The notes under the pieces: model-generated
Seen by the model: the letters and a program-made list of their open reading frames with translations, nothing else
What the model was told of the DNA's origin: nothing
Database searches by the model: none
Position numbers and translations under genes: made by a program
Origin: Verrucomicrobiia bacterium
GTDB taxonomy: Bacteria; Verrucomicrobiota; Verrucomicrobiia; Limisphaerales; Palsa-1400
DNA length: 64,000 bases
Direction: 5' to 3'
Assembly (NCBI GenBank): GCA_036501665.1
Contig: DASXZW010000071.1
Location: 59,763 to 123,762 of the forward strand
Shown: piece by piece, positions 21,196-64,000 of the stretch
Numbering within the stretch: the stretch's first letter is position 1
Layout: each line of letters starts with the position of its first letter

Positions 21196-21237
21196 ACGAA
21201 AATGACAGCGCAGCAGAGCCGAACTAAAAGCATTTCA

Positions 21238-21500
21238 CAGAAGGAAACGAAGGAAACGAAGGATGGAAAGAATTTTGCCTTACATGGAGGGTTTTCAGGA
21301 ATAGCATTGCAAGGACTCCTCCGCGATGGGCAGAGCTTTATGCAATTCATGAGTAACCACGGATTTCACGGATAACACGGATAAAAAGCGCGGAACCAAT
21401 TGTTTAACGCTTTTTTGGCAAAATTTTCTCGCGCAGAGGCGCAGAAAAAAGGAAAAATAATAGCTTCCTCTCTGTGCCCTCAGCGCCTCTGCGCGAGATT
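21238..21500. repeat. Composite cluster of three short-repeat modules downstream of nrdJ
   Basis: Module 1 is CAGAAGGAAACGAAGGAAACGAAGGA (21238-21263). Module 2 is AACCACGGATTTCACGGATAACACGGATAAAAA (21355-21387). Module 3 is a perfect 16-bp inverted repeat, TCTCGCGCAGAGGCGC (21427-21442) with GCGCCTCTGCGCGAGA (21483-21498). Each module has a second copy elsewhere in the window. Confidence 0.8.
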
Positions 21501-21574
21501 CAGGGTTTGAGTTTTTGTTTGCGGCTTTTGCCGCGCTAAGTCTTTGCGTTGATTTCCGATTCCTGCATTCGGTT

Positions 21575-39154: not shown

Positions 39155-41359
39155 ATGTACACTTCAAAATTATTTCGTGCGATCTATTTAACCGTGGCGA
39201 TGCTCGCCAGTGTCATCGTTTCTCCGGCGAACGCGGAAGTTCGATTGCCAAAAGTTTTCGCAACCCACATGGTGCTTCAACAGGAAAAGCCGATTGTGGT
39301 GTGGGGTTGGGCGCAACCGAATGAAACAGTGACCGTGACTCTCGACTCGGCAACCGCGCAAGCACAGGCCAATGACCGTGGTGAATGGAAAACCACTCTT
39401 CCTGCAATGAAAGCCGCCGGTCCCTTCACACTCAAAGTGACCGGCTCCAGCACAGCCCAATTTGATGACGTAATGATCGGCGAAGTCTGGCTTTGCTCAG
39501 GCCAGTCAAACATGGAAATGGGAATCGGCGCGGCCAACGATGGCGAAAAGGAAATCGCCGCAGCGGACCATCCTGGAATCCGCCTCCTCCTCGTCGCAAA
39601 AAAATGGGACCCGCTGCCGCAAAATGATATTGACGGCGAATGGAAGGTTTGCTCGCCACAGACGGTGGGGCAGAACGGTTGGGGCGGCTTTTCCGCCGCC
39701 GCCTATTATTTCGGGCGCGAACTCAACGCGAAGCTCGGCGTTACCGTCGGATTGATCGACTCCAGTTGGGGCGGGACGCTCATTCAGCCGTGGACGCCGC
39801 CTGAGGGTTTTGCCTCCGTCCCCGCGCTCGCTGGGGATTACAAACTGGTCCAACTTGCTGACCCCACAACTCCGCAACATCAGGAGCGCCTCAAACAAAC
39901 CCTCGACGGCACCGAAAAATGGCTCGAATCCGCCCGCAAAGCTTTGACCGACCGCACCATCGTTCCGCCGATGCCAGCTTACCCGGCTGATTTGCTTGCG
40001 CCACACGAATTGCAAAACTCCACCGCTCTCTACAATGGAATGATTCATCCGCTCGTCGGATATGGAATCCGCGGCGCAATCTGGTATCAGGGCGAGGCAA
40101 ACCTCGGCGACGGAATGCATTATGCCGACAGAATGAAGGGCCTCATCGGTGGCTGGCGCACGATTTGGAATGAAGGCGAATTCCCGTTCTACTTCGTGCA
40201 AATCGCGCCATTTAATTACGGCGGAAATCCAGAAAAGGAAGCTGAATTCTGGGAAGGGCAGGCCGCTGCCGCTCAATCCATTCCGAACACCGGCATGGCC
40301 GTCATCAACGATATTGGCAACCTTAAGGATATTCACCCTAAAGACAAACAAGATGTTGGCCACCGTCTGGCTTTGTTGGCCCTCGCAAAAACCTATGGTC
40401 GCACCGATGTGACGTATTCCGGGCCAAGCTTTAACTCGATGAAGGTCGAGGACAACAAGTTAAGACTCACCTTTGACAATATCGACGCCGGATTGGCCAC
40501 CCGCGATGGCACTCCGCCGAATTGGTTTGAGATCATTGACGCGGACGATGGCGGATTCGTGAAAGCTGACGCGCAAATTGATGGGGCCACAGTCGTTCTT
40601 TCCGCGCCCGGCGTCAAACATCCGGTCGCCATGCGATACGCCTGGAGCATGCTTGCCGAGCCGAATCTCATGAACAGCGACCGCCTGCCCGTCAGCGCAT
40701 TCCGCGCCGGCACCATTCCGAAACGCGATCTTCTTGCGATGAAAGTTCCCGAAGCCAAGGAGTATCGGCTCGTTTATGATCTTGACCTCGGAAAATTGGG
40801 CAGGGAGATCCAATACAGCGCGGACAATCATCAATCCATTACCCAACCCTTCGACCGCATCGCCTACTTCGTCGAAGTTCAGGAAAATGACGACAACACG
40901 GAATATTTATATGTCTCAATGGATGCTTTCACGACTGACCTGAAAAAAATCGGCGTGCCGACTGTCCAATCCGGCGCGCATTTCCAGGAGAACGTCGCGA
41001 ACTTGAACGTTTTTTCAAACGTTAAAGGAATTGAAACAGGGTCGAATCTTCCCGGAGGCAATATTGAATTCTGGCCAAACAACTACGCTCCCAACAACGC
41101 TTCAAAAGTTCCCAACGCTTCCAATGAAGCCTACGATTTCGGCGACGAACCGGTCGATCCGCCCGATGGCTACGGTTCCATGCAAGTCCACAACCACGAT
41201 GCCAAACAAACACTATTCGCGATCAACCATTGGAGCGAAGGGGGCAGGGCGGACATCGGCATCGGCAATCAGCCAGGCAACAACGCCGATTGGACTTTCT
41301 CCGCCAACGCTGGGAACTTCCCCGTCAAGCGCCTCCGGGTCCTTGTGCGTTGCCGCTAA
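39155..41359 (+). CDS. Sialate O-acetylesterase-like SGNH/DUF303 esterase with ~200-aa C-terminal extension
   Basis: 734 aa with Sec signal …VIVSPANA. The catalytic block GEVWLCSGQSNME, together with IRGAIWYQGEAN and FYFVQIAPF, is typical of the family. The extension starts at about nt 40751. Confidence 0.8.
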   Translation: MYTSKLFRAIYLTVAMLASVIVSPANAEVRLPKVFATHMVLQQEKPIVVWGWAQPNETVTVTLDSATAQAQANDRGEWKTTLPAMKAAGPFTLKVTGSSTAQFDDVMIGEVWLCSGQSNMEMGIGAANDGEKEIAAADHPGIRLLLVAKKWDPLPQNDIDGEWKVCSPQTVGQNGWGGFSAAAYYFGRELNAKLGVTVGLIDSSWGGTLIQPWTPPEGFASVPALAGDYKLVQLADPTTPQHQERLKQTLDGTEKWLESARKALTDRTIVPPMPAYPADLLAPHELQNSTALYNGMIHPLVGYGIRGAIWYQGEANLGDGMHYADRMKGLIGGWRTIWNEGEFPFYFVQIAPFNYGGNPEKEAEFWEGQAAAAQSIPNTGMAVINDIGNLKDIHPKDKQDVGHRLALLALAKTYGRTDVTYSGPSFNSMKVEDNKLRLTFDNIDAGLATRDGTPPNWFEIIDADDGGFVKADAQIDGATVVLSAPGVKHPVAMRYAWSMLAEPNLMNSDRLPVSAFRAGTIPKRDLLAMKVPEAKEYRLVYDLDLGKLGREIQYSADNHQSITQPFDRIAYFVEVQENDDNTEYLYVSMDAFTTDLKKIGVPTVQSGAHFQENVANLNVFSNVKGIETGSNLPGGNIEFWPNNYAPNNASKVPNASNEAYDFGDEPVDPPDGYGSMQVHNHDAKQTLFAINHWSEGGRADIGIGNQPGNNADWTFSANAGNFPVKRLRVLVRCR

Positions 41360-41377
41360 AAGCCAAGGCAAAAGGCG

Positions 41378-41440
41378 AACCACGGATTTCACGGATTTCA
41401 CGGATTTAAGAAAATCCTTTTCCCATCCGTGAAATCCGTG
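41378..41440. repeat. CACGGATTT tandem repeat forming a 16-bp perfect hairpin
   Basis: AACCACGGATTTCACGGATTTCACGGATTT occupies 41378-41407. ATCCGTGAAATCCGTG (41425-41440) is the exact reverse complement of CACGGATTTCACGGAT. The first 19 nt are identical to 21355-21373. Confidence 0.8.
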
Positions 41441-41656
41441 TTTATGCTTATGCCCTGTATTGCCTAAGGTTCTGGATGCGGCTGATGATCCGGCAAGTGT
41501 GAAAGCATTCGTTCCGATTGGCTGTGGGGGATTGATGTGTTTTGCGGGCACTCGTTTCGTTGACAAGATTTTCCTTTCACTTTCGGGAATCTCTTTTTAT
41601 TATTTGGTTCTGGGGCGGCTCAAATACCCCGTTCGCCGCCTGTGAGACAGATACTT

Positions 41657-55606: not shown

Positions 55607-55696
55607 TGGAAAACCCTGATCGACTACATAAGTTAGTGAAGAAAAAGCGGTTGCGGCTTGATTCAGCAAAATCTTACCGTATGTTTTGCAACTCGA

Positions 55697-56851
55697 ATGA
55701 GGTATCGAACGGTTGCTTTGACAGCGGTGGGGGTTTTTCTCTGCGCAGTTTCTTGTAAAAAGAAAGAGCCGCCCAAGCCTGCGCCACTTAAGGTTCAGGT
55801 CATCACTGTCGCCACGCAGGACGTCCCAATTTACCAGCAATGGATCGGGACGCTCGATGGTTATCCAAACGCCCAAATTCGCGCGCAGGTCAGCGGCTAT
55901 TTAATCAAGCAGGATTACTCAGAAGGCGGCGCTGTTAAAAAGGGCGACCTCCTTTTCGAAATCGACCCCCGGCCTTTTCAAGCGACTCTCGACGCCGCAA
56001 AAGCCAAGCTCGCCCAGGACGTCGCCCAATCCGGCAAAACCGAACTCGACGTCAAACGCTACACACCTCTCGCGCGCGACCAGGCTGTCAGCCAGCAGGA
56101 ATTGGACGATGCCGTTCAGGCCAATCTCGGCGCGCAAGCGGCGATTCAAGCCGACAAAGCCACCATCGAAAGCGCCACACTCAATCTGGAATTTTGCCGG
56201 ATTACATCGCCGGTCGATGGAATCGCCGGAACCGCTTTGGCGCAAATCGGCGATCTCGTCGGCCCCGGCGGCGCGTTGCTCACCACAGTATCCACTGTCG
56301 ATCCGATACGCGTTTATTTCAGCATGAGCGAGCAGGATTATTTGAATTTTCACCGGCAATTCACCAACTCCGCCGGGTTGGAATCGTTTCGTTCGGAAAT
56401 GCAACTGCAACTGATTCTCTCTGACGGGTCAATTTATCCACAATCCGGCAAGTGGCTTTTCACCGGTCGGCAAGTCGATGTCAACACAGGCACATTCCAG
56501 GTCGCGGGCGTTTTTCCAAATCCTGATTTTTTTCTGCGTCCCGGCCAATACGGTCAGGTTCGCGCCAAAGTCGAAACTCATCGAAACGCCGTCCTCCTCC
56601 CGCAGCGCGCCATCATGGAATCGCAGGGTTCCTATCAAGTGGCGACCGTCAATGAAACAAACGGCGTGCATATCAAGAGCGTCCAGGTTGGCGATCAGAT
56701 CGGCAAGAATTGGCTGATCAACAGCGGCATCGATCCCAACGACAAAGTCATTGTGGAAGGCGACCAAAAGGTCAAAGAAGGAACTGTCGTCGATCCTCAA
56801 CCTTATAATACAGATTCGACCAACGCGCCGCCCCCTTCAGCAAAACCATAG
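55697..56851 (+). CDS. RND efflux periplasmic adaptor lipoprotein (AcrA/MexA-like)
   Basis: The ORF-track entry is 55658..56851. ATG 55697 gives MRYRTVALTAVGVFLCAVSC, ending in a lipobox. The stretch IRAQVSGYLIKQDYSEGGAVKKGDLLFEIDPRPFQA is a classic MFP lipoyl/hairpin segment. Confidence 0.85.
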   Translation: MRYRTVALTAVGVFLCAVSCKKKEPPKPAPLKVQVITVATQDVPIYQQWIGTLDGYPNAQIRAQVSGYLIKQDYSEGGAVKKGDLLFEIDPRPFQATLDAAKAKLAQDVAQSGKTELDVKRYTPLARDQAVSQQELDDAVQANLGAQAAIQADKATIESATLNLEFCRITSPVDGIAGTALAQIGDLVGPGGALLTTVSTVDPIRVYFSMSEQDYLNFHRQFTNSAGLESFRSEMQLQLILSDGSIYPQSGKWLFTGRQVDVNTGTFQVAGVFPNPDFFLRPGQYGQVRAKVETHRNAVLLPQRAIMESQGSYQVATVNETNGVHIKSVQVGDQIGKNWLINSGIDPNDKVIVEGDQKVKEGTVVDPQPYNTDSTNAPPPSAKP

Positions 56852-59800
56852 ATGTACCGCTTTTTCATCAACCGGCCCATTGTGGCCATGGTCATAGCCA
56901 TTTTGCAGGTCGTCTTGGGACTTGTCACGATGTTGAGCCTGCCGGTGGCGCAATATCCCAACATCGTCCCTCCGGAAATCCGAATCCAGACCACCTACGT
57001 CGGCGCTGACGCTCAGACTTTGGCGGAATCCGTTGCAACGCCGATCGAGGAGCAGATGAGCGGCGTGGACAACATGAACTACATGTATTCCGTCAGCGCG
57101 AACAACGGCGTCATGCGGATGGGCGTCAATTTCGATGTCAAGACCGACCCGAACATCGACCAGGTTTTGTCCCAACTCCGCGAAAATCAGGCGCAACCGC
57201 AACTGCCCGCTGCTGTCAATAATTTCGGTATTACACTGATTAAATCGCCCACGACCCCTCTGATGCTCGTGGCGTTGACCTCGCCCAAAGGCACGCACGA
57301 TTCCACATTTTTGGCCAATTACGCCTACATCAACCTGGTCGATCAAGTCACTCAGTTGAAAGGAATCTCAACCGTCACAGTCTTCGGCGCGGGACAATAC
57401 GCCATGCGCTTTTGGGTAAAACCGGATCAACTCGCCAAGCTCAATATTACTGTCAGCGATTTGCTCAGCGCCATCAACGCGCAAAACACCGTCAATCCCG
57501 CCGGGCAAATCGGTGGGCCACCTACGCCAAAGGGGCAGGAATTTACTTACGCCATTACAGCGCAAAGCCGGTTGGTGACTGAAAAAGAATTCGGCGATAT
57601 CGTTGTGCGCGAAAATTCCGATGGTTCCGTCGTGCGGTTGCGCGATGTCGCGCGAATCGAACTCGGTGCGCAAACCTACAGCCTTCTCGGCAAATTAAAT
57701 GGCAAACCTTCAGCGGTCATGGCCATTTACCAATTGCCCGGCTCAAATGCCATCGACGCCGCCAACAACGTCAAGAACCTCATGGCGCAACTCAAAGGCC
57801 GTTTTCCCGAAGACCTGGAATACGGCGTCTCGCTCGACACGACTCTTGCTGTCTCAGAAGGCATGCGGGAAATCAAATGGACTCTCGGAATTGCCTTGGT
57901 GCTTGTCATCATCGTCGTCTTTATTTTCCTCCAGGGTTGGCGGGCCTCGCTAATTCCACTGCTGGCCGTTCCGGTATCGTTGATCGGGACGTTTTCCTTT
58001 TTCCCCATTTTTGGCTTTTCGCTCAATACGCTCTCGCTGTTGGGGATAACGTTGGCCATCGGCCTGGTGGTGGACGACGCGATTGTTGTGGTCGAAGCCA
58101 CCGAACGCCATATCGAGGAAGGACTTAAACCCAAGGATGCCGCGCTCAAGGCGATGGACGAGGTGTCGGGGCCGGTGGTGGCGATGGCTTTGATATTGGC
58201 GGCGGTGTTCGTCCCAACCGTCTTCATCGCCGGCATCTCCGGCAGACTCTACCAACAATTCGCCGTAACGATTGCGATTTCCGTTGCGCTCTCGGCGTTC
58301 AACGCGCTTTCGTTAAGCCCGGCGCTGGCGGCAATGTTGCTACGGCCGAAGAAAAAGGGAAGAGCGCGCGGGCCACTATGGCGTTTTTACGACTGGTTTG
58401 ACCGCGAGTTCGACAAGGCGCGCCACATCTACCTCGGCGTGAGTTTGTGGTTCATCCGCAAGGCGGCATTCGTCCTGGTTGCTCTGCTGCTGGTCGGCTT
58501 GGCTGCTGTTTTACTGGCGCAGCATTTGCCGACGGCATTTGTGCCGGAAGAAGACCAGGGCTACGCCTTCGTCCAAGCCCAATTGCCCAACGCTTCTTCA
58601 TTGGAGCGCACTGATGCTGTCGCAAAGAAAATCGAGAACCTGATGAAAGACATTCCCGGCGTGAAATATTACACGACTGTGGAGGGGTTCAGTTTGTTGA
58701 GCCAGGTGCAGGCGACTTACAACGTATTTTTCTTCGTCACGCTCAATCCCTGGGGCAATCGCCATAAAGATTCCGAACATTTCGACGCCATTAAAAAACG
58801 GCTCAATACCGACTTGGGTAAATTGTCCGAGGCGCAAGCCTTTGCTTTTTCGCCTCCCTCCATTCCCGGCATCGGAACGGCGGGAGGTTTTACGATCATG
58901 CTCGAAGACCGTTCGGGGTCGCAAGACCAGGCGTTTCTGACGGAAAACCTGAACAAATTCATGGCCGCCGCAAAAAAGCGGCCCGAACTCTCCGGACTCA
59001 TCACCACGTATTTGCCCGATGTGCCGCAAATTTATGTCAAGGTGGACCGCGACAAGGTCTTGAAGCAGGGAGTGGCGCTGAATGATGTTTACGGGACGTT
59101 GCAAACGTTTATGGGCGGGAATTTTGTCAATTATTTTAATCGCTTCGGCCGCCAATGGCAGGTCTATGTCGAAGCGGAGGATAAATACCGCGCCAGCGCC
59201 GACAACCTCGGTTTGTTCTATGTGCGAAACAAAGCAGGGCAAAGTCTTCCGCTGACTGCTTTCGCAAAGGCGGAACGCCGCGTTGGCCCTGAATTCATTC
59301 TGCACTACAATGAATATCCCTGCGCGCAAATCAACGGGGCCGCCGCCCCGGGTTACAGCTCTAGTCAGGCCACTAAAGCGTTGGAAGAGGTTTTCGCGCA
59401 GAACATGCCCAAGCAAATGGGCTTCGACTATTTCGGCATGTCCTTCCAGGAAAAGAAAGCGGCGGAAGGTGTCAAGCCGGCAGTGATCTTCGGCGTTTCC
59501 TTGTTCTGCGTCTTTTTGATTCTCGCCGCTCAATACGAGAGTTGGACGCTCCCGTTCAGCGTTCTGCTTGGAACGCCCACCGCTATTTTAGGGGCGTTCC
59601 TGGCGCTCAACGCGCGCGGTTTGCAGAACAACGTCTTCGCTCAAATTGGTTTGATCATGCTCATCGGTTTGGCCGCAAAAAACGCCATCCTCATCGTCGC
59701 CTTCGCCAAAACTGAGTACGAGAATGGCAAGCCGATTATCGAAGCCGCGCAAACCGGCGCATCCGTCCGTTTGCGCCCGATTCTCATGACTTCCTTTGCG

Positions 59801-60037
59801 TTCATCCTGGGATGCGTGCCTCTCTGGGTCGCTTCGGGCTCGGGCGCGGTAGCTCGTCAAACTTTGGGCACGGTCGTCATCGGCGGCATGTTAGGCGCCA
59901 CTTGCGTGGACACGCTGATCGTCCCGGTGACTTTTTACATCGTCGAAAAAATGGGCGAACGATTCCATAAAAAACCCAAGCCAGCAGAGGAGGGGGAAAA
60001 ACCGCCGCCGCCGCACTCGGAGGGCGCGAAGGCATGA
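56852..60037 (+). CDS. RND multidrug efflux permease (HAE1, AcrB/MexB-like)
   Basis: 1061 aa. It begins MYRFFINRPIVAMVIAILQVVLG. Other matches are GLVVDDAIVVVE and AAKNAILIV. It starts immediately after the adaptor stop (TAG then ATG). Confidence 0.9.
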   Translation: MYRFFINRPIVAMVIAILQVVLGLVTMLSLPVAQYPNIVPPEIRIQTTYVGADAQTLAESVATPIEEQMSGVDNMNYMYSVSANNGVMRMGVNFDVKTDPNIDQVLSQLRENQAQPQLPAAVNNFGITLIKSPTTPLMLVALTSPKGTHDSTFLANYAYINLVDQVTQLKGISTVTVFGAGQYAMRFWVKPDQLAKLNITVSDLLSAINAQNTVNPAGQIGGPPTPKGQEFTYAITAQSRLVTEKEFGDIVVRENSDGSVVRLRDVARIELGAQTYSLLGKLNGKPSAVMAIYQLPGSNAIDAANNVKNLMAQLKGRFPEDLEYGVSLDTTLAVSEGMREIKWTLGIALVLVIIVVFIFLQGWRASLIPLLAVPVSLIGTFSFFPIFGFSLNTLSLLGITLAIGLVVDDAIVVVEATERHIEEGLKPKDAALKAMDEVSGPVVAMALILAAVFVPTVFIAGISGRLYQQFAVTIAISVALSAFNALSLSPALAAMLLRPKKKGRARGPLWRFYDWFDREFDKARHIYLGVSLWFIRKAAFVLVALLLVGLAAVLLAQHLPTAFVPEEDQGYAFVQAQLPNASSLERTDAVAKKIENLMKDIPGVKYYTTVEGFSLLSQVQATYNVFFFVTLNPWGNRHKDSEHFDAIKKRLNTDLGKLSEAQAFAFSPPSIPGIGTAGGFTIMLEDRSGSQDQAFLTENLNKFMAAAKKRPELSGLITTYLPDVPQIYVKVDRDKVLKQGVALNDVYGTLQTFMGGNFVNYFNRFGRQWQVYVEAEDKYRASADNLGLFYVRNKAGQSLPLTAFAKAERRVGPEFILHYNEYPCAQINGAAAPGYSSSQATKALEEVFAQNMPKQMGFDYFGMSFQEKKAAEGVKPAVIFGVSLFCVFLILAAQYESWTLPFSVLLGTPTAILGAFLALNARGLQNNVFAQIGLIMLIGLAAKNAILIVAFAKTEYENGKPIIEAAQTGASVRLRPILMTSFAFILGCVPLWVASGSGAVARQTLGTVVIGGMLGATCVDTLIVPVTFYIVEKMGERFHKKPKPAEEGEKPPPPHSEGAKA

Positions 60038-60057
60038 ACGCCCTTTCTTCATTTTTT

Positions 60058-60141
60058 CCTAATCTTAATCTTAATCCTAATCATAATCCTCTTCACGTAA
60101 TGGGAAAAGAGATTATGATTAGGATTAAGATTACGATTAGG
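60058..60141. repeat. 31-bp near-perfect inverted repeat built from hexamer (NGATTA) repeats
   Basis: The left arm is 60058-60088 and the right arm 60111-60141, complementary at 30 of 31 positions, with a 22-nt loop. Each arm is five tandem hexamers. Confidence 0.9.
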
Positions 60142-61566
60142 AGTGTCCCCTTATTGTCGGCTGGTTTGATCGTTCTACTATTAGCCGGCTGCGCAGTTGG
60201 TCCAACATACAAACGCCCCGCCGTCAATTCTCCAACGACATTTCGCAACGCCGGTTCCGACACAAATTCCCTCGGCGATCTCCCGTGGTGGCAACTCTTT
60301 CAGGACCCCGTCCTCAAGAACCTGATCCAAACCTCCCTCACCAACAATTATGACTTGCGCATTGCCGCGGCGCGAATCGAGCAATCCCGCGAAATTCTGG
60401 TGCAAACCCGTTCCGCCTATTACCCGCAAGTGGGTTACGAACTCGGTGTCGGCGGCGGAAAAAATGTCTCGGGAGGGTTGCCATCTCCCACGGGCAAAGG
60501 CGCCGGCAAGGAATATTTCGGCGCTCTCGATGCCTCGTGGGAAATCGACCTTTGGGGCCGCGTCCGCCGCCTTTCCGAATCGGCCCGCGCCCAATATTTT
60601 GCGACCGAGGAAGCGCGCCGGGACGTGACCGTCAGTCTTGTCAGCGGAGTTGCGCAATCGTATTTCCAAATTCTCGCGCTCGACGACGAATTGGTGATTG
60701 CAAAGAACGCCACCAATTCCTTCGCGGAAAGCCTGAGAATATTCGACGAACGCCTCCGCGGCGGTGTCGCGTCCAAACTGGAAACTTCTGCCGCCGAAGC
60801 TGCGCTCGATTCAGCCGCCGCGACGATTCCAGAATTGCGCCGCCAAATTGTCGCTCAGGAAGATTCGCTGAGCGTGCTGCTTGGCTTCAATCCCGGCCCA
60901 ATCTCGCGCGACACAAACGCCTTCAATCAGACGACGCTTCCCGATATTCCGCCGGGCTTGCCTTCCTCCTTGATGGAGCGGCGTCCCGATGTTCGCCAGG
61001 CCGAGCAGCTCATGATTTCTGCCAATGCGCAAATTGGCGTCGCGAAGGCCAACTTTTATCCCCAACTGTCGCTCTCCGGCCTCTTCGGTCGCGTCTCTCC
61101 TGAACTTTCTATGTTGACAGGCGGAGGAGCCAACGCATGGGAAGCCGCCGCTGAAGTCGTGGGCCCCATCTTTCAAGGCGGCCAGCTTCGGGCGCAAGTG
61201 CGCGAGGCCCGCGCCGTGTGGGACGAAACGCGCCTTTCATACCAATCCACAATTTTGCGCGCATTCCAGGAAGTTGCCGACGCTTTGACTTCCCGCGAAG
61301 AACTCAGTCGCGAGCGCGATTTTCAATCACGAGCCGTCGCCGCCTACGAGGAAGCCGTCAAAGTCGCCAACCAACGCTACCGCGGCGGTCAGGCAAGCTA
61401 CTACGAACTCCTTCAGGAGCAACAACTCCTTTTCCCCGCGCAAAACACGCTGGCCCAGGTCCACCTCAACCAGCTTCTCGCCACCGTCCAACTCTACAAA
61501 GCCCTCGGTGGCGGCTGGATTGCTCCAACTTCACCCGGTCAACCCGCCGATTCGCCGAAGAATTAA
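60115..61566 (+). CDS. RND efflux outer-membrane factor lipoprotein (NodT/OprM family)
   Basis: The ORF-track entry is 60034..61566. ATG 60115 gives [26 protein letters not shown] (lipoprotein signal) followed by AVGPTYKRP. The alternatives ATG 60100 and ATG 60034 would translate the repeat arms. The body is paralogous to the OMF at 174..1658. Confidence 0.8.
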
Positions 61567-64000
61567 GTGAGGCTCTTCGCTTTTCCGCGATTCAGCTAAG
61601 TCAACTGCAAACTCAACCACCCAATCGTTGTGTTCCTCGGGATCGACCAGCATCTGTTGCACACGCCAATTTTTTTTGTCCTCCGACACCGTGACATACG
61701 TGTGCCTCGCGTTTCGCGCGTTCGGATCAAGACAAATGCGCTCGTGCTCGACATAAAACGCGTCCAATGCCTGTTGCAATCGTTCCGGCGTCCAAGGCTG
61801 GCCGTCCGCGTCGTTTGGCGAAGAAAGATATCCGATGGCCTCGGCAAAATCGCCAATGACCGACCCACGCAAAAACGTGAAAATGCGATTTCTAATTGAC
61901 GCAGTGAAACCCTTCGTATCACGCGTGACATCCCGTTCAGCTTCATCAGAACCAGGAGGACGGACTTCTTTCGCTTCGGCGCGTTGAAAATTCGGGTCCC
62001 GCATTTTTTCCCATTCGTCCAATAAACTCGAATCGACCTGGCGAATCATCGTTTGCAGATAAAGTTCCATTTCGCGGACGGCGTCATTTTTCGCGGAGTC
62101 TGGGACCGTTTGCGAAAGCGCCTTGTAAACGCTGTTCAAATGTCGGAGCAAAACACCCTCCGCCCGTTGCAATTCGTAATCGCGAATGTAATCCGAGAAT
62201 GACCGGAAATTCTCAAACATCTCCCGCGCGATGGATTTCGGACGAATATTTTCCTGACCGACCCACGGATGCTTGTCAGCGAAAGCGTTGAAGGTCGAAT
62301 AAACAAATTCGCGATTGGGCTTCGGGTACTCGAGCTTTTCCAATTCCTCAATTCGCTTGTCGTAATCGATCCCTTCCATTTTCATCTCAGCCATCTTCTG
62401 TTTTTTCAACTTGTCAAGCTGCCGCCGCAGCACAATGTCCGGGTTTTCGAGAATCGATTCCACGAGCGTCAGCAGAACCAGCGCGTAATCCGGTTGTTGC
62501 GGGTCAACCAAAGGAATCGTGTCCAAAAGGTAAAGCGAAAGCGCCTGGTCCATCGAAAAATCATCCTGCAAATTCACATTGACGCGCAGATATGCCCCAT
62601 CTTCCGTTTTCGGGATGAATTCGATTATTTTTCTATCAAGTAAGGACCGAAACAACTGCCAGGCGCGCTTGGTGTGCTCCTTCTTGGCCTTTGGAGTCTC
62701 GTGGCTGTCGCGAATCAACCGTTGCATCGCCGCGCACCCGTCGCCTTTTCTGCTAAGCACATTCAACAACATTCCGTGCGACACCGAAAACCGCGATGTG
62801 AGCTTTTCCGACGGGGCCTGAATCAATCGCAAAAAAGTTTGCTTGTCCCAATTGACGAAATTCTTTTCCGGGGGCTTGCGTTTTACCGATTTCTTTCCTT
62901 CCTTCGCCTTCTCCTCCAGCTTGATGTTTTCAATCGTGTGTTCCGGCGCTTGCGCCACAACCCAGCCACGATCGTCAAATCCTTTTCGCCCCGCGCGCCC
63001 GGCGATTTGGTGAAAATCCCGCGCGCTCAAAATCGCCGTTTTCTGCCCATCAAATTTGCAAAGCTTCGTGAAGAGCGCGGTGCGAATCGGCATATTGATC
63101 CCAGCGCCCAACGTGTCCGTTCCACAAATGACTTTGAGCAGCCCTTTTTGCGTGAGTTGTTCCACCAGGACGCGATATTTCGGGAGCAAACCGGCGTGAT
63201 GCAGGCCGATTCCGTGCTTGAGCCAGCGGCGAATTTCCGGGCCGTACGGACTGGTGAATTTAAATCCTTCAATCGCGCTGCCGATGGCGTTTTTTTCCTC
63301 CCGCGTGCAGACATTGATGCTTGTGAAATCCTGCGCGCTCTGCGCCGCTTCAAGTTGCGTGAAGTGGACGACGTAAACCGGACTTCGCCCCTCGCTCGCG
63401 AGCCGCTCCAAAGCCTGTGCCAATGTGATTTCCGAATAGGCGTACTCCAGCGGTACCGGCCTGTCCGTTGATGAAATAGTGATTGACTGTCGGCCGTTTC
63501 GCTTCGTCAGTTCCTCCTCAAAAAAAGCTGTCTCTCCCAACGTCGCGGACATTAACAAGAACCGCGCCTGCGGCAGCGTCAATAATGGAACCTGCCACGC
63601 AACGCCGCGCTCCCGGTCCGAGTAATAATGGAACTCGTCCATGATAACTTCCTGAAACGGAGCGTCCCGCCCTTCGCGAAGCGCGATGTTTGCGAGAATT
63701 TCCGCGGTGCAACAGAGAATCGGGGCGTTGCGATTCACCGTGGCGTCGCCTGTGCTCAAGCCGACGTTTTCCGGCCCAAACTCGCGGCAAAGCGCCAGCC
63801 ATTTCTCGTTGACAAGCGCTTTGATCGGGCAGGTGTAAACCGAGCGCTTTCCTTGCGCGAGCGCCTTGAACTGCACGGCGGCGGCAACGAGCGATTTGCC
63901 GGAGCCTGTCGGGGTGTTCAGGATGACGTTCTTCTCCTCAAACAATTCGAGCACCGCATTCTCCTGCGCCGGATAAAGTTCAAGACTCCGACTTTCGACA
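61531..64000 (-). CDS. Ski2-like DEAD/DEAH-box helicase with long C-terminal domain (DUF3516-like); N-terminus beyond the window
   Basis: The frame stays open upstream of the track start (GTG 63954) to the window edge (…[30 protein letters not shown]). Helicase motifs are TGSGKS, MDEFHY, SATL and [10 protein letters not shown]. The C-terminal region is about 450 aa. It overlaps the convergent OMF gene end by 36 nt. Confidence 0.8.

Follow-up and report, generated by a model that had tools for sequence, protein, structure and literature searches.

The short tandemly repeated repetitive (STRR) heptamers of cyanobacteria are laid out as direct tandem arrays in intergenic DNA. Bacterial simple sequence repeats (SSRs) of 6-9 nt are described as rarely reported (PMC4692102), and a Porphyromonas gingivalis MITE (miniature inverted-repeat transposable element) is presented as a palindromic mobile element with inverted repeats and an internal variable-number minisatellite (PMC4596501). 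Repetitive extragenic palindromic (REP) sequences, BIMEs and REPINs are short extragenic hairpins, abundant in operon spacers and at 3' ends, where they may stabilise upstream mRNA or affect neighbouring genes (PMC3116915). Correia/NEMIS elements (CREE) of Neisseria are co-transcribed hairpins that RNase III binds and then cleaves or protects, thereby altering expression of the adjacent gene (PMC2649163). MITE-like elements have also been seen joined in frame with ORFs (open reading frames), among them the Rickettsia palindromic elements (RPE), ERIC/RU-1, YPAL/RU-2 and the 107-bp form of Correia, and the YPAL copy at locus YPO1552 forms part of a predicted signal peptide (PMC2229807). Here we analyse a hairpin with tandem-hexamer arms in a 64,000-nt stretch of the Verrucomicrobiia contig DASXZW010000071.1, the whole of which we call the window; the hairpin occupies the junction between the gene for an RND-family inner-membrane pump and the gene for an outer-membrane factor (OMF).

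This hairpin is probably a REP/MITE-like palindrome that was inserted in frame into the n-region of the OMF signal peptide, that is translated from a start codon coupled to the pump gene, and that is removed together with the signal peptide. In what follows, W denotes the window copy, L numbers denote other loci and P numbers denote homologous proteins. The features of the locus are these.

56852-60037, + strand: gene of the RND pump in the inner membrane (AcrB family; matches ACR_tran of Pfam over residues 1-1031, E = 0), ending in the stop TGA 60035-60037.
60019-60024, + strand: GGAGGG, Shine-Dalgarno-like, 10 nt before ATG 60034.
60034-60036, + strand: ATG overlapping the pump stop (ATGA); proposed OMF start and JGI gene call (510 aa).
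60034-61566, + strand: OMF ORF (NodT/OEP-family outer-membrane lipoprotein), long form of 510 aa (Pfam OEP, 1.8e-44).
60037-60056, + strand: pyrimidine-rich left flank, long-form codons 2-8 (NALSSFF).
60057-60088, + strand: left arm, T-CC-(TAATCN)x5, read in the OMF frame as P-N-L-N-L-N-P-N-H-N.
60089-60110, + strand: loop, containing ATG 60100 and homologous to the L213 and L210 loops in an alignment of orthologous hairpins.
60111-60142, + strand: right arm, (GATTAN)x5-GG-A, encoding the positive charges of the signal-peptide n-region.
60115-60117, + strand: ATG inside the right arm; NCBI call (P0001, 483 aa), not conserved.
60151-60192, + strand: signal-peptide h-region and lipobox by translation, with the Cys codon at 60190-60192.
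60154-60156, + strand: in-frame TTG, 10 nt after AGGAG 60139-60143; alternative downstream start.
55658-56851: flanking MFP gene, from a profile search.

A repeat search of the window verified the inverted repeat, whose 32-nt arms are 97% complementary (31/32) and are separated by a loop of 22 nt. The sole mismatch, T60065/C60134, the loop length and the five hexamers per arm had already been reported in a preliminary description of this DNA, and sequence and repeat search bear all three out; the pump stop, the ATG of the ATGA overlap, ATG 60100 and the ATG within the right arm are likewise where that description placed them. Each arm holds about five units (TAATCN on the left, GATTAN on the right; 4.8 and 5.3 copies by Tandem Repeats Finder). 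Runs of (GATTAN)x3 give nine overlapping matches in the 64-kb window, all of them within the two arms, as against 0.01 in shuffles. The RNA spanning 60030-60170 folds at -51.1 kcal/mol (z = -6.7), a value that none of 200 shuffles equals, and the hairpin alone folds at -45.7 kcal/mol. A partition-function fold gives probabilities of being unpaired of 0.98 for ATG 60034, 0.00 for ATG 60115, 0.57 for TTG 60154 and 0.08 for AGGAG 60139-60143.

Rfam searched at a permissive threshold returned only generic miRNA-precursor hairpin models, at 20-40 bits compared with gathering thresholds of 54-117. No terminator-like site was found at the hairpin, the stem of which is AT-rich and is followed by GGAGTGTCCCC instead of a U-tract, and an intrinsic terminator was rejected. 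The one promoter match inside the hairpin (9/12, at 60092-60119) is weak, no better than shuffles suggest, and uninformative.

The choice of the ATGA overlap as the OMF start comes from the same junction in orthologous operons. A metagenome scan contained no orthologue above 68% identity, and the closest relatives were obtained by exact-protein look-ups. When these operons are compared for the presence or absence of the element, at least seven others prove to have a hexamer hairpin where their RND and OMF genes meet.

L121: hairpin present, OMF 86% identical (P0002).
L208: hairpin present, OMF 87% (P0003).
L209: hairpin present, OMF 86% over a partial protein (P0114).
L128/L129: hairpin present, OMF 67%.
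L210: hairpin present, OMF 77% (P0010).
L212: hairpin present, OMF 66% (P0067).
L213: hairpin present, OMF 66% (P0062).

The hairpin is absent from L122 (OMF 78%), L125 (76%), L211 and many others. In these hairpin-less orthologues the OMF ATG overlaps the pump TGA as ATGA, and a signal peptide of about 17-22 residues follows directly. Hairpin-bearing orthologues retain an ATGA or GTGA overlap together with GGAGG. The motif, as GGAGG or GGAAGG, stands at an equal distance before the NTGA start in L122, L128, L208, L210, L212 and L213; its conservation is only suggestive, as it also encodes the C-terminal tail of the pump.

From ATG 60034 the frame of W stays open to 61566, through both arms, and the path from NTGA start through hairpin to lipobox Cys is open and in frame in all six short-read junctions (W, L208, L128/L129, L210, L212 and L213). 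Three of these six were picked since gene callers had given them truncated starts of the MILALLLAGC type, so that the sample is not biased toward open frames. Measured between start codon and first TAATC, the left flank of the orthologues has a length of 26, 20 or 23 nt, which is 2 mod 3 in every case; its differences are 3-nt indels, a kind of change that hexamer slippage cannot give. In a survey of 62 orthologous junctions, with coordinates anchored by tblastn, an open frame from the NTGA overlap start is found in most junctions whose pump stop and Cys codon are 89 nt or more apart, for which random sequence would give a few percent. In protein alignments the hairpin appears as an insert of 25-46 residues between the conserved segments MSAP and RxFKLW..MILALLLAGC, and the lipobox Cys is aligned in all orthologues. 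In four homologues (P0051, P0083, P0109 and P0112) the N-terminus as called includes the translation of a hairpin in partial decay, and the I-K/R/T reading of the right arm is common to these four and to L208, L128, L210, L212 and L213. From these comparisons we infer that the ATGA overlap is the start actually used and that the hairpin is read through; any consequence for expression is inferred with them.

We picture the following course of events. In an ancestor of the verrucomicrobial lineage, a copy of the repeat would have been placed just after OMF codon four or five, in the n-region of the lipoprotein signal peptide. Ribosomes that end the pump gene would re-initiate at ATG 60034, or would initiate there via GGAGG, and would unwind the hairpin and translate through both arms. 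The product would carry a 53-residue signal peptide before the Cys, with the predicted long-form N-terminal peptide MNALSSFFPNLNLNPNHNPLHVMGK. The left arm would be read as (P/L/H/R)-N and the right arm as I-(K/R/T/M), furnishing the n-region charges IRIKITIR, and the h-region and the lipobox, LAG followed by the Cys, would come next. Signal peptidase II would cut off the whole segment between LAG and C and leave the mature OMF unaltered. Such an insertion would be tolerated because the segment is cleaved and permissive, because every spacer base gives a sense codon in this frame (CNT, ANG), the other frames holding TAA, TAG or TGA, and because hexamer slippage keeps the frame. With a stem that begins 23 nt after the start, independent ribosome loading would probably be hindered and elongation slowed, so that OMF output would be tied more closely to pump translation. 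The hairpin could also be a site for RNase III or a barrier to exonucleases, in which case mRNA processing or stabilisation would be possible.

The preliminary description had instead placed the OMF start at ATG 60115, within a duplex whose pairing would be what is maintained and which would gate OMF expression or uncouple it from the pump, possibly by RNase III cleavage. The physical part of that proposal holds: with its length of about 31 bp the duplex is predicted to suit RNase III as a substrate, and the pairing of ATG 60115 is complete (0.00). Correia elements of Neisseria offer a precedent in hairpins that RNase III binds and then cleaves or protects (PMC2649163). ATG 60115 also gives a textbook lipoprotein signal peptide and is the start called by NCBI. 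However, both ATG 60115 and ATG 60100 are present only in W, and the orthologous hairpins hold no in-frame ATG within the element. ATG 60115 hinges on a single spacer base, T60116, in place of which orthologues have A or G; what is conserved instead is the overlap start, GGAGG and the open frame upstream. Moreover, so deeply buried a start, with a weak Shine-Dalgarno sequence in the loop only, would leave an essential pump component nearly untranslated.

Covariation was examined by imposing the 31 pairs of W on an alignment of eight orthologous hairpins, with a null made by shuffling 3' partners among the sequences. Paired cells amount to 88.5%, compared with 87.9 +/- 1.0% after shuffling (171 of 500 shuffles reach the observed value), and the covariation score is 0.078 compared with 0.064 (77 of 500 shuffles reach it). 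Among the four spacer pairs, 13 of 31 cells in the orthologues are unpaired, and all pairing comes from the invariant TAATC/GATTA cores. Family-wide, spacer complementarity in the 29 strict hairpins among the matches listed is 44/80, barely above chance at a register-matched null of 36.3 +/- 3.9. Co-variation of the sixth positions, as the preliminary description had it, is found in W itself, in which three of four spacer pairs are complementary, and is not maintained across orthologues and family. W is a well-matched member of the family, and its three complementary spacers are no evidence of structural selection. A structured cis-regulatory RNA that sequesters the start was accordingly rejected, there being no compensatory change and no conservation of the sequestered start codon. 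With hairpin stabilities that spread from -18 to -46 kcal/mol, we regard gating at ATG 60115 as improbable. Gating of the OMF start is not supported by these comparisons; an effect of the hairpin that dampens OMF expression or enforces its coupling to the pump is possible.

A start downstream of the element has to be weighed as well. The hairpin would then be an untranslated intercistronic REP-like element, the OMF being translated from TTG 60154 by way of the AGGAG of the last hexamer, and would either impede 3' exonucleases or decouple the two genes, keeping pump expression above that of OMF. REP hairpins can stabilise upstream mRNA. The motif AGGAG 60139-60143 is 10 nt before the in-frame TTG, the corresponding position is taken by a TTG in L208 and by an ATG in L121, L121 as assembled can start only there, and most members of the hairpin family, described below, are intergenic in operon-like spacers. 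The signal peptide that begins at TTG 60154 is, on the other hand, very short and without a positive n-region, unlike those of all hairpin-less orthologues, and the AGGAG itself lies in the stem. This model also leaves unexplained the 3-nt indels of the left flank, the frame kept open through an element of 44-80 nt plus flanks in the six short-read junctions, and the conservation of residues to either side of the insert. We consider it unlikely.

Gene callers are split over the OMF start, which JGI places so as to give 510 aa and NCBI 483 aa. Starts are miscalled in the orthologues P0002, P0003, P0010, P0034, P0062, P0067, P0098 and P0118 because the hairpin confuses start prediction, and many orthologues are left with an implausibly short signal peptide or none; MILALLLAGC and MSLLVLLFVGC are examples of the short signal peptides as called.

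The orthologous hairpins differ among themselves in the number of units per arm (2 to 5), in their spacer bases, in the distance between arrays (22, 16 or 10 nt) and in energy (-18 to -46 kcal/mol). Presence and absence are polymorphic at orthologous sites, the closer relative L122 (78%) being without the hairpin and L128 (67%) with it. On a neighbour-joining tree of mature OMFs, hairpin-bearing genes are interleaved with hairpin-less ones, and from this patchy distribution it follows that gain or loss of the element has recurred. An alignment is possible between the loops of W, L210 and L213, and the insertion point is identical in all hairpin-bearing orthologues, a combination that, as far as alignments go, favours an old insertion followed by repeated loss. 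A candidate direct repeat, AGCGC.C, flanks the insert of L210 and is not convincing as a target-site duplication. GATTA hexamer hairpins were also observed directly downstream of the OMF stop, and not at the pump/OMF junction, in two verrucomicrobial loci (L132, 2895-2990; L133, 1731-1784).

Beyond this operon, the hairpin is a member of a dispersed family. When one genome per species was scanned for runs of at least four GATTAN units, at least 119 stretches came up; titles accompany 80 of those listed, and 51 of these 80 are PVC (Planctomycetes-Verrucomicrobia-Chlamydiae) genomes. Among the matches listed, the PVC members comprise Verrucomicrobiota, including Akkermansia and Chthoniobacter, Lentisphaerota, Planctomycetota and Kiritimatiellia. 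We counted polarity with a slightly looser unit definition, as a GATTAN array within 120 nt after a TAATCN array, and among the matches listed (L002-L120) about 45 hairpins have the TAATCN array first compared with about 4 that have GATTAN first. Since the TAATCN-first order reads alike on both strands, this polarity is intrinsic to the element. The arms continue into pyrimidine-rich left flanks and purine-rich right flanks. Under a simple greedy ORF model, 35 of the 42 scorable hairpins among the matches listed are intergenic, and 23 of these 35 lie between co-directional genes, often filling short spacers. The fallback offered in the preliminary description, namely a dispersed hairpin repeat that landed in this junction, gains support from such a family in many, mostly PVC, genomes.

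Where a genome has more than one copy, the copies can resemble each other in their loops and in their outer inverted repeats or flanks. In an Akkermansia metagenome-assembled genome (MAG), several copies have an identical loop and outer CTAAGTTAAG...CTTAACTTAG around the hexamer arms, in both orientations; in a Desulfobacteraceae MAG, seven copies or more have a loop of 5 nt and flanks in common; and L098 and L109 have two hairpin copies each. In L029 (4523-4645 and 4719-4829), L048, L093 and L081 the hexamer hairpin was seen nested in a larger palindrome with the outer inverted repeat CTAAGTTAAGG/CTAACTTAAGG. These nested palindromes, which come from Akkermansia and a Lentisphaerales MAG, occur in both orientations with the same asymmetric loop and have a MITE-like look. 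No description of the (TAATCN)n...(NGATTA)n motif was found in the literature searched.

Arrays that stand singly are another matter. Single GATTAN arrays were rejected as family members because they are generic: more than 120 are present in viral contigs, nearly all single and many in giant-virus MAGs, and the Firmicute matches are coding DY repeats. Relative to gene direction single arrays are oriented 13 versus 10, without bias, which argues against a motif specific to the mRNA strand such as periodic protein-binding sites on RNA. Candidates of that sort, namely Hfq (ARN)n, TRAP/HutP-like triplet arrays and arrays of RNase E sites, were dropped. One single TAATCN array (L034, 3609-3655) is read as PNLNPNLNLNPNLNPNP inside an ArsP_1-family permease of Lentimonas (Pfam 1.6e-42, residues 12-334), and by its reading frame it is a further case of in-frame residence of the repeat in a real gene.

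The unbiased orientation of single arrays would also suit hexamer arrays that are binding sites at the level of DNA, for example for a transposase or nucleoid protein reading GATTA at a 6-bp period, the RNA hairpin being incidental. Conservation extends to the 5-nt core, to the period of 6 nt and to the way the arms face inward (about 45 versus 4), and not to spacer pairing, and inward polarity resembles the terminal inverted repeats of a transposable element. Against this, no candidate protein was identified, a 6-bp period is off the helical repeat of DNA, and single arrays are widespread in unrelated genomes and viral contigs as coding DY repeats or microsatellites. We hold such a role to be very improbable.

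The GATTAN hairpin is not the only one of its kind at this junction. At least four unrelated repeat-built hairpins occupy it in different orthologues, of the GATTAN, AAGAAGTAAGAATTAAGAA, NGTCCAA/CCAAAG and CACGGAT types. The junctions of L136, L138, L139, L143 and L176 have the form AAGAAGTAAGAATTAAGAA.../...TTCTTAATTCTTAATTC with the purine arm first; here the loop contains the OMF start (MKNS...), and the h-region (FLNFLILNS) is encoded by the right arm. L153 has NGTCCAA x5, L150 has CACAAAGG-type units, and L155 has ACGGATGGAC-type units, its junction folding at -59 kcal/mol. These non-GATTAN hairpins are mostly in frame too. Within OMF loci, long inverted repeats avoid the coding bodies and concentrate in two places, which are the junction, with at least 10 loci, and the DNA immediately 3' of the OMF stop, with 6 loci. 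At L148 a AAGAAGTAAGAATTAAGAA ... TTCTTAATTCTTAATTC hairpin was observed 3' of the OMF.

Recurrence of this sort invites the explanation that a hairpin is positively selected here: the stem would block independent initiation, make the OMF depend on pump-derived ribosomes and so set the stoichiometry, and different lineages would have recruited different hairpins. The unrelated hairpins at the junction, the clustering of long inverted repeats there and just 3' of the OMF, and the persistence of hairpins down to about 62% OMF identity all point this way. The patchiness of hairpins on the tree, the many orthologues without any hairpin and the absence of covariation point the other way, as do the wide variation in stability and in position relative to the start, which in the AAGAAG family is in the loop. 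Hairpins are, besides, frequent in ordinary intergenic spacers, so that the junction may just be permissive, and the clustering may simply reflect that the n-region is the sole permissive spot in an operon without intergenic DNA. Positive selection for the hairpin seems to us unlikely. A broader proposal, to which we give an equally small chance, is that tandem-repeat-armed hairpins, with (TAATCN)n...(NGATTA)n as their most widespread type, make up an undescribed class of PVC elements with fixed inward polarity and a conserved 5-nt core, and that in-frame residence in the OMF gene has been selected as a coupling or stoichiometry device fashioned from selfish repeats.

Several observations weigh against our preferred reading, a translated palindrome tolerated in the signal peptide. 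The recurrence of other tandem-repeat hairpin families at the junction could mean selection for a hairpin and not mere tolerance. NCBI annotation starts the OMF at ATG 60115, and the overlap start is a putative one that comes from comparison. A hairpin of about -46 kcal/mol that begins 23 nt after the start is unusual to translate through. Length changes of the element and its tail are mostly multiples of 6, and part of the conservation of frame is then mechanical and not selective. L121 (5975-6033) and L209 break the OMF frame after the hairpin, by assembly error or by a real switch to a downstream start; the break in L121 arises from a 5-nt difference in the tail, and in L209 the RND gene is also split into three ORFs. 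Both come from sample ERZ26871208, with contig names ending in np1212, and are presumably nanopore assemblies; assembly indels are the likely cause. As to mobility in the source genome, neither a transposase nor a target-site duplication was identified at the hairpin, and no search for transposases, RAYT included, was made. The copy-number search anticipated in the preliminary description turned up many genomes with the repeat, some of them multi-copy, and a single hairpin copy in 70 kb of the source contig.

Some further observations concern the OMF gene and the rest of the window. The OMF has 7317 homologues at E <= 1e-30, the top named matches being efflux outer-membrane subunits of Verrucomicrobiae. 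Its 3' end overlaps by 36 nt (61531-61566) that of a gene for a DEAD/DUF3516 helicase, which lies convergent to it on the - strand (61531-63954), and an identical 36-nt convergent overlap occurs in L121 and L122. A second tandem-repeat hairpin of the window, at 41364-41457, consists of CACGGATTT x3 and then an inverted copy, ATCCGTGAAATCCGTG, and begins 5 nt after the stop of the ORF at 39155-41359; the hairpin at the RND/OMF junction of L155 is of this CACGGAT type as well. A 320-nt intergenic region at 21196-21514 is dense in short repeats, with GAAGGAAAC x2.7 (21240-21263), CACGGATNN x3 (21358-21384) and a 19-nt inverted repeat of 95% (21427-21445 / 21480-21498).

No new mechanism is demonstrated here; the value of the analysis is in the annotation of OMF starts and in the lead to a repeat family. 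Recognising the hairpin corrects OMF start calls that are a systematic annotation artefact, and the family to which it leads, of tandem-hexamer hairpins widespread in PVC bacteria, is apparently undescribed. The locus further suggests that a cleaved signal-peptide n-region can act as a safe landing site for palindromic repeats in an operon without intergenic space. If occupancy of the junction is selected, it would be a simple natural device that links synthesis of the outer-membrane channel to synthesis of the pump.

Set beside the described systems, the window hairpin resembles RPE-type elements in being a small palindrome, in belonging to a mostly intergenic family that is also found in frame within conserved genes, and in the shared pattern of tolerance or near-neutrality. 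As in that class, W, L208, L128/L129, L210, L212 and L213 have the insert inside a conserved ORF, in frame and free of stops, and the residues on either side of it are conserved with hairpin-less orthologues. RPE-type elements differ in having a length of 100-170 bp, a fixed sequence and short terminal inverted repeats, whereas the window hairpin has variable-number hexamer arms with free sixth positions; unlike theirs, the loops of its family differ between genomes while the hexamer core recurs across phyla. With REP, BIME and REPIN sequences its family shares patchy presence at orthologous sites and, in other genomes, groups of related copies within a genome. REPs, however, are imperfect palindromes, rich in GC and 20-40 nt in length, that go with RAYT transposases (Y1 transposases of the IS200/IS605 kind) and have a conserved GTAG-type motif, whereas the window hairpin is built of AT-rich tandem repeats, lies inside an ORF and is without the REP consensus. 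The mechanism put forward in the preliminary description would resemble that of Correia elements, with which the duplex of about 31 bp is predicted to be compatible by length; yet Correia elements are 105-155 bp long, end in 26-bp repeats and have a TA duplication as well as motifs for IHF and promoters, features that are absent from the window hairpin. Like STRR and SSR sequences, the family consists of tandem 6-9 nt units that are intergenic and characteristic of lineages; unlike them, it sets two arrays in a fixed inverted polarity to form a long hairpin. In the P. gingivalis MITE, the tandem repeat is internal cargo between conventional terminal repeats, whereas here tandem repeats are the arms. 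The element may thus be described as a REP/MITE-like in-frame palindrome made distinct by its variable-number hexamer arms, its fixed polarity and a core shared across the PVC phyla.

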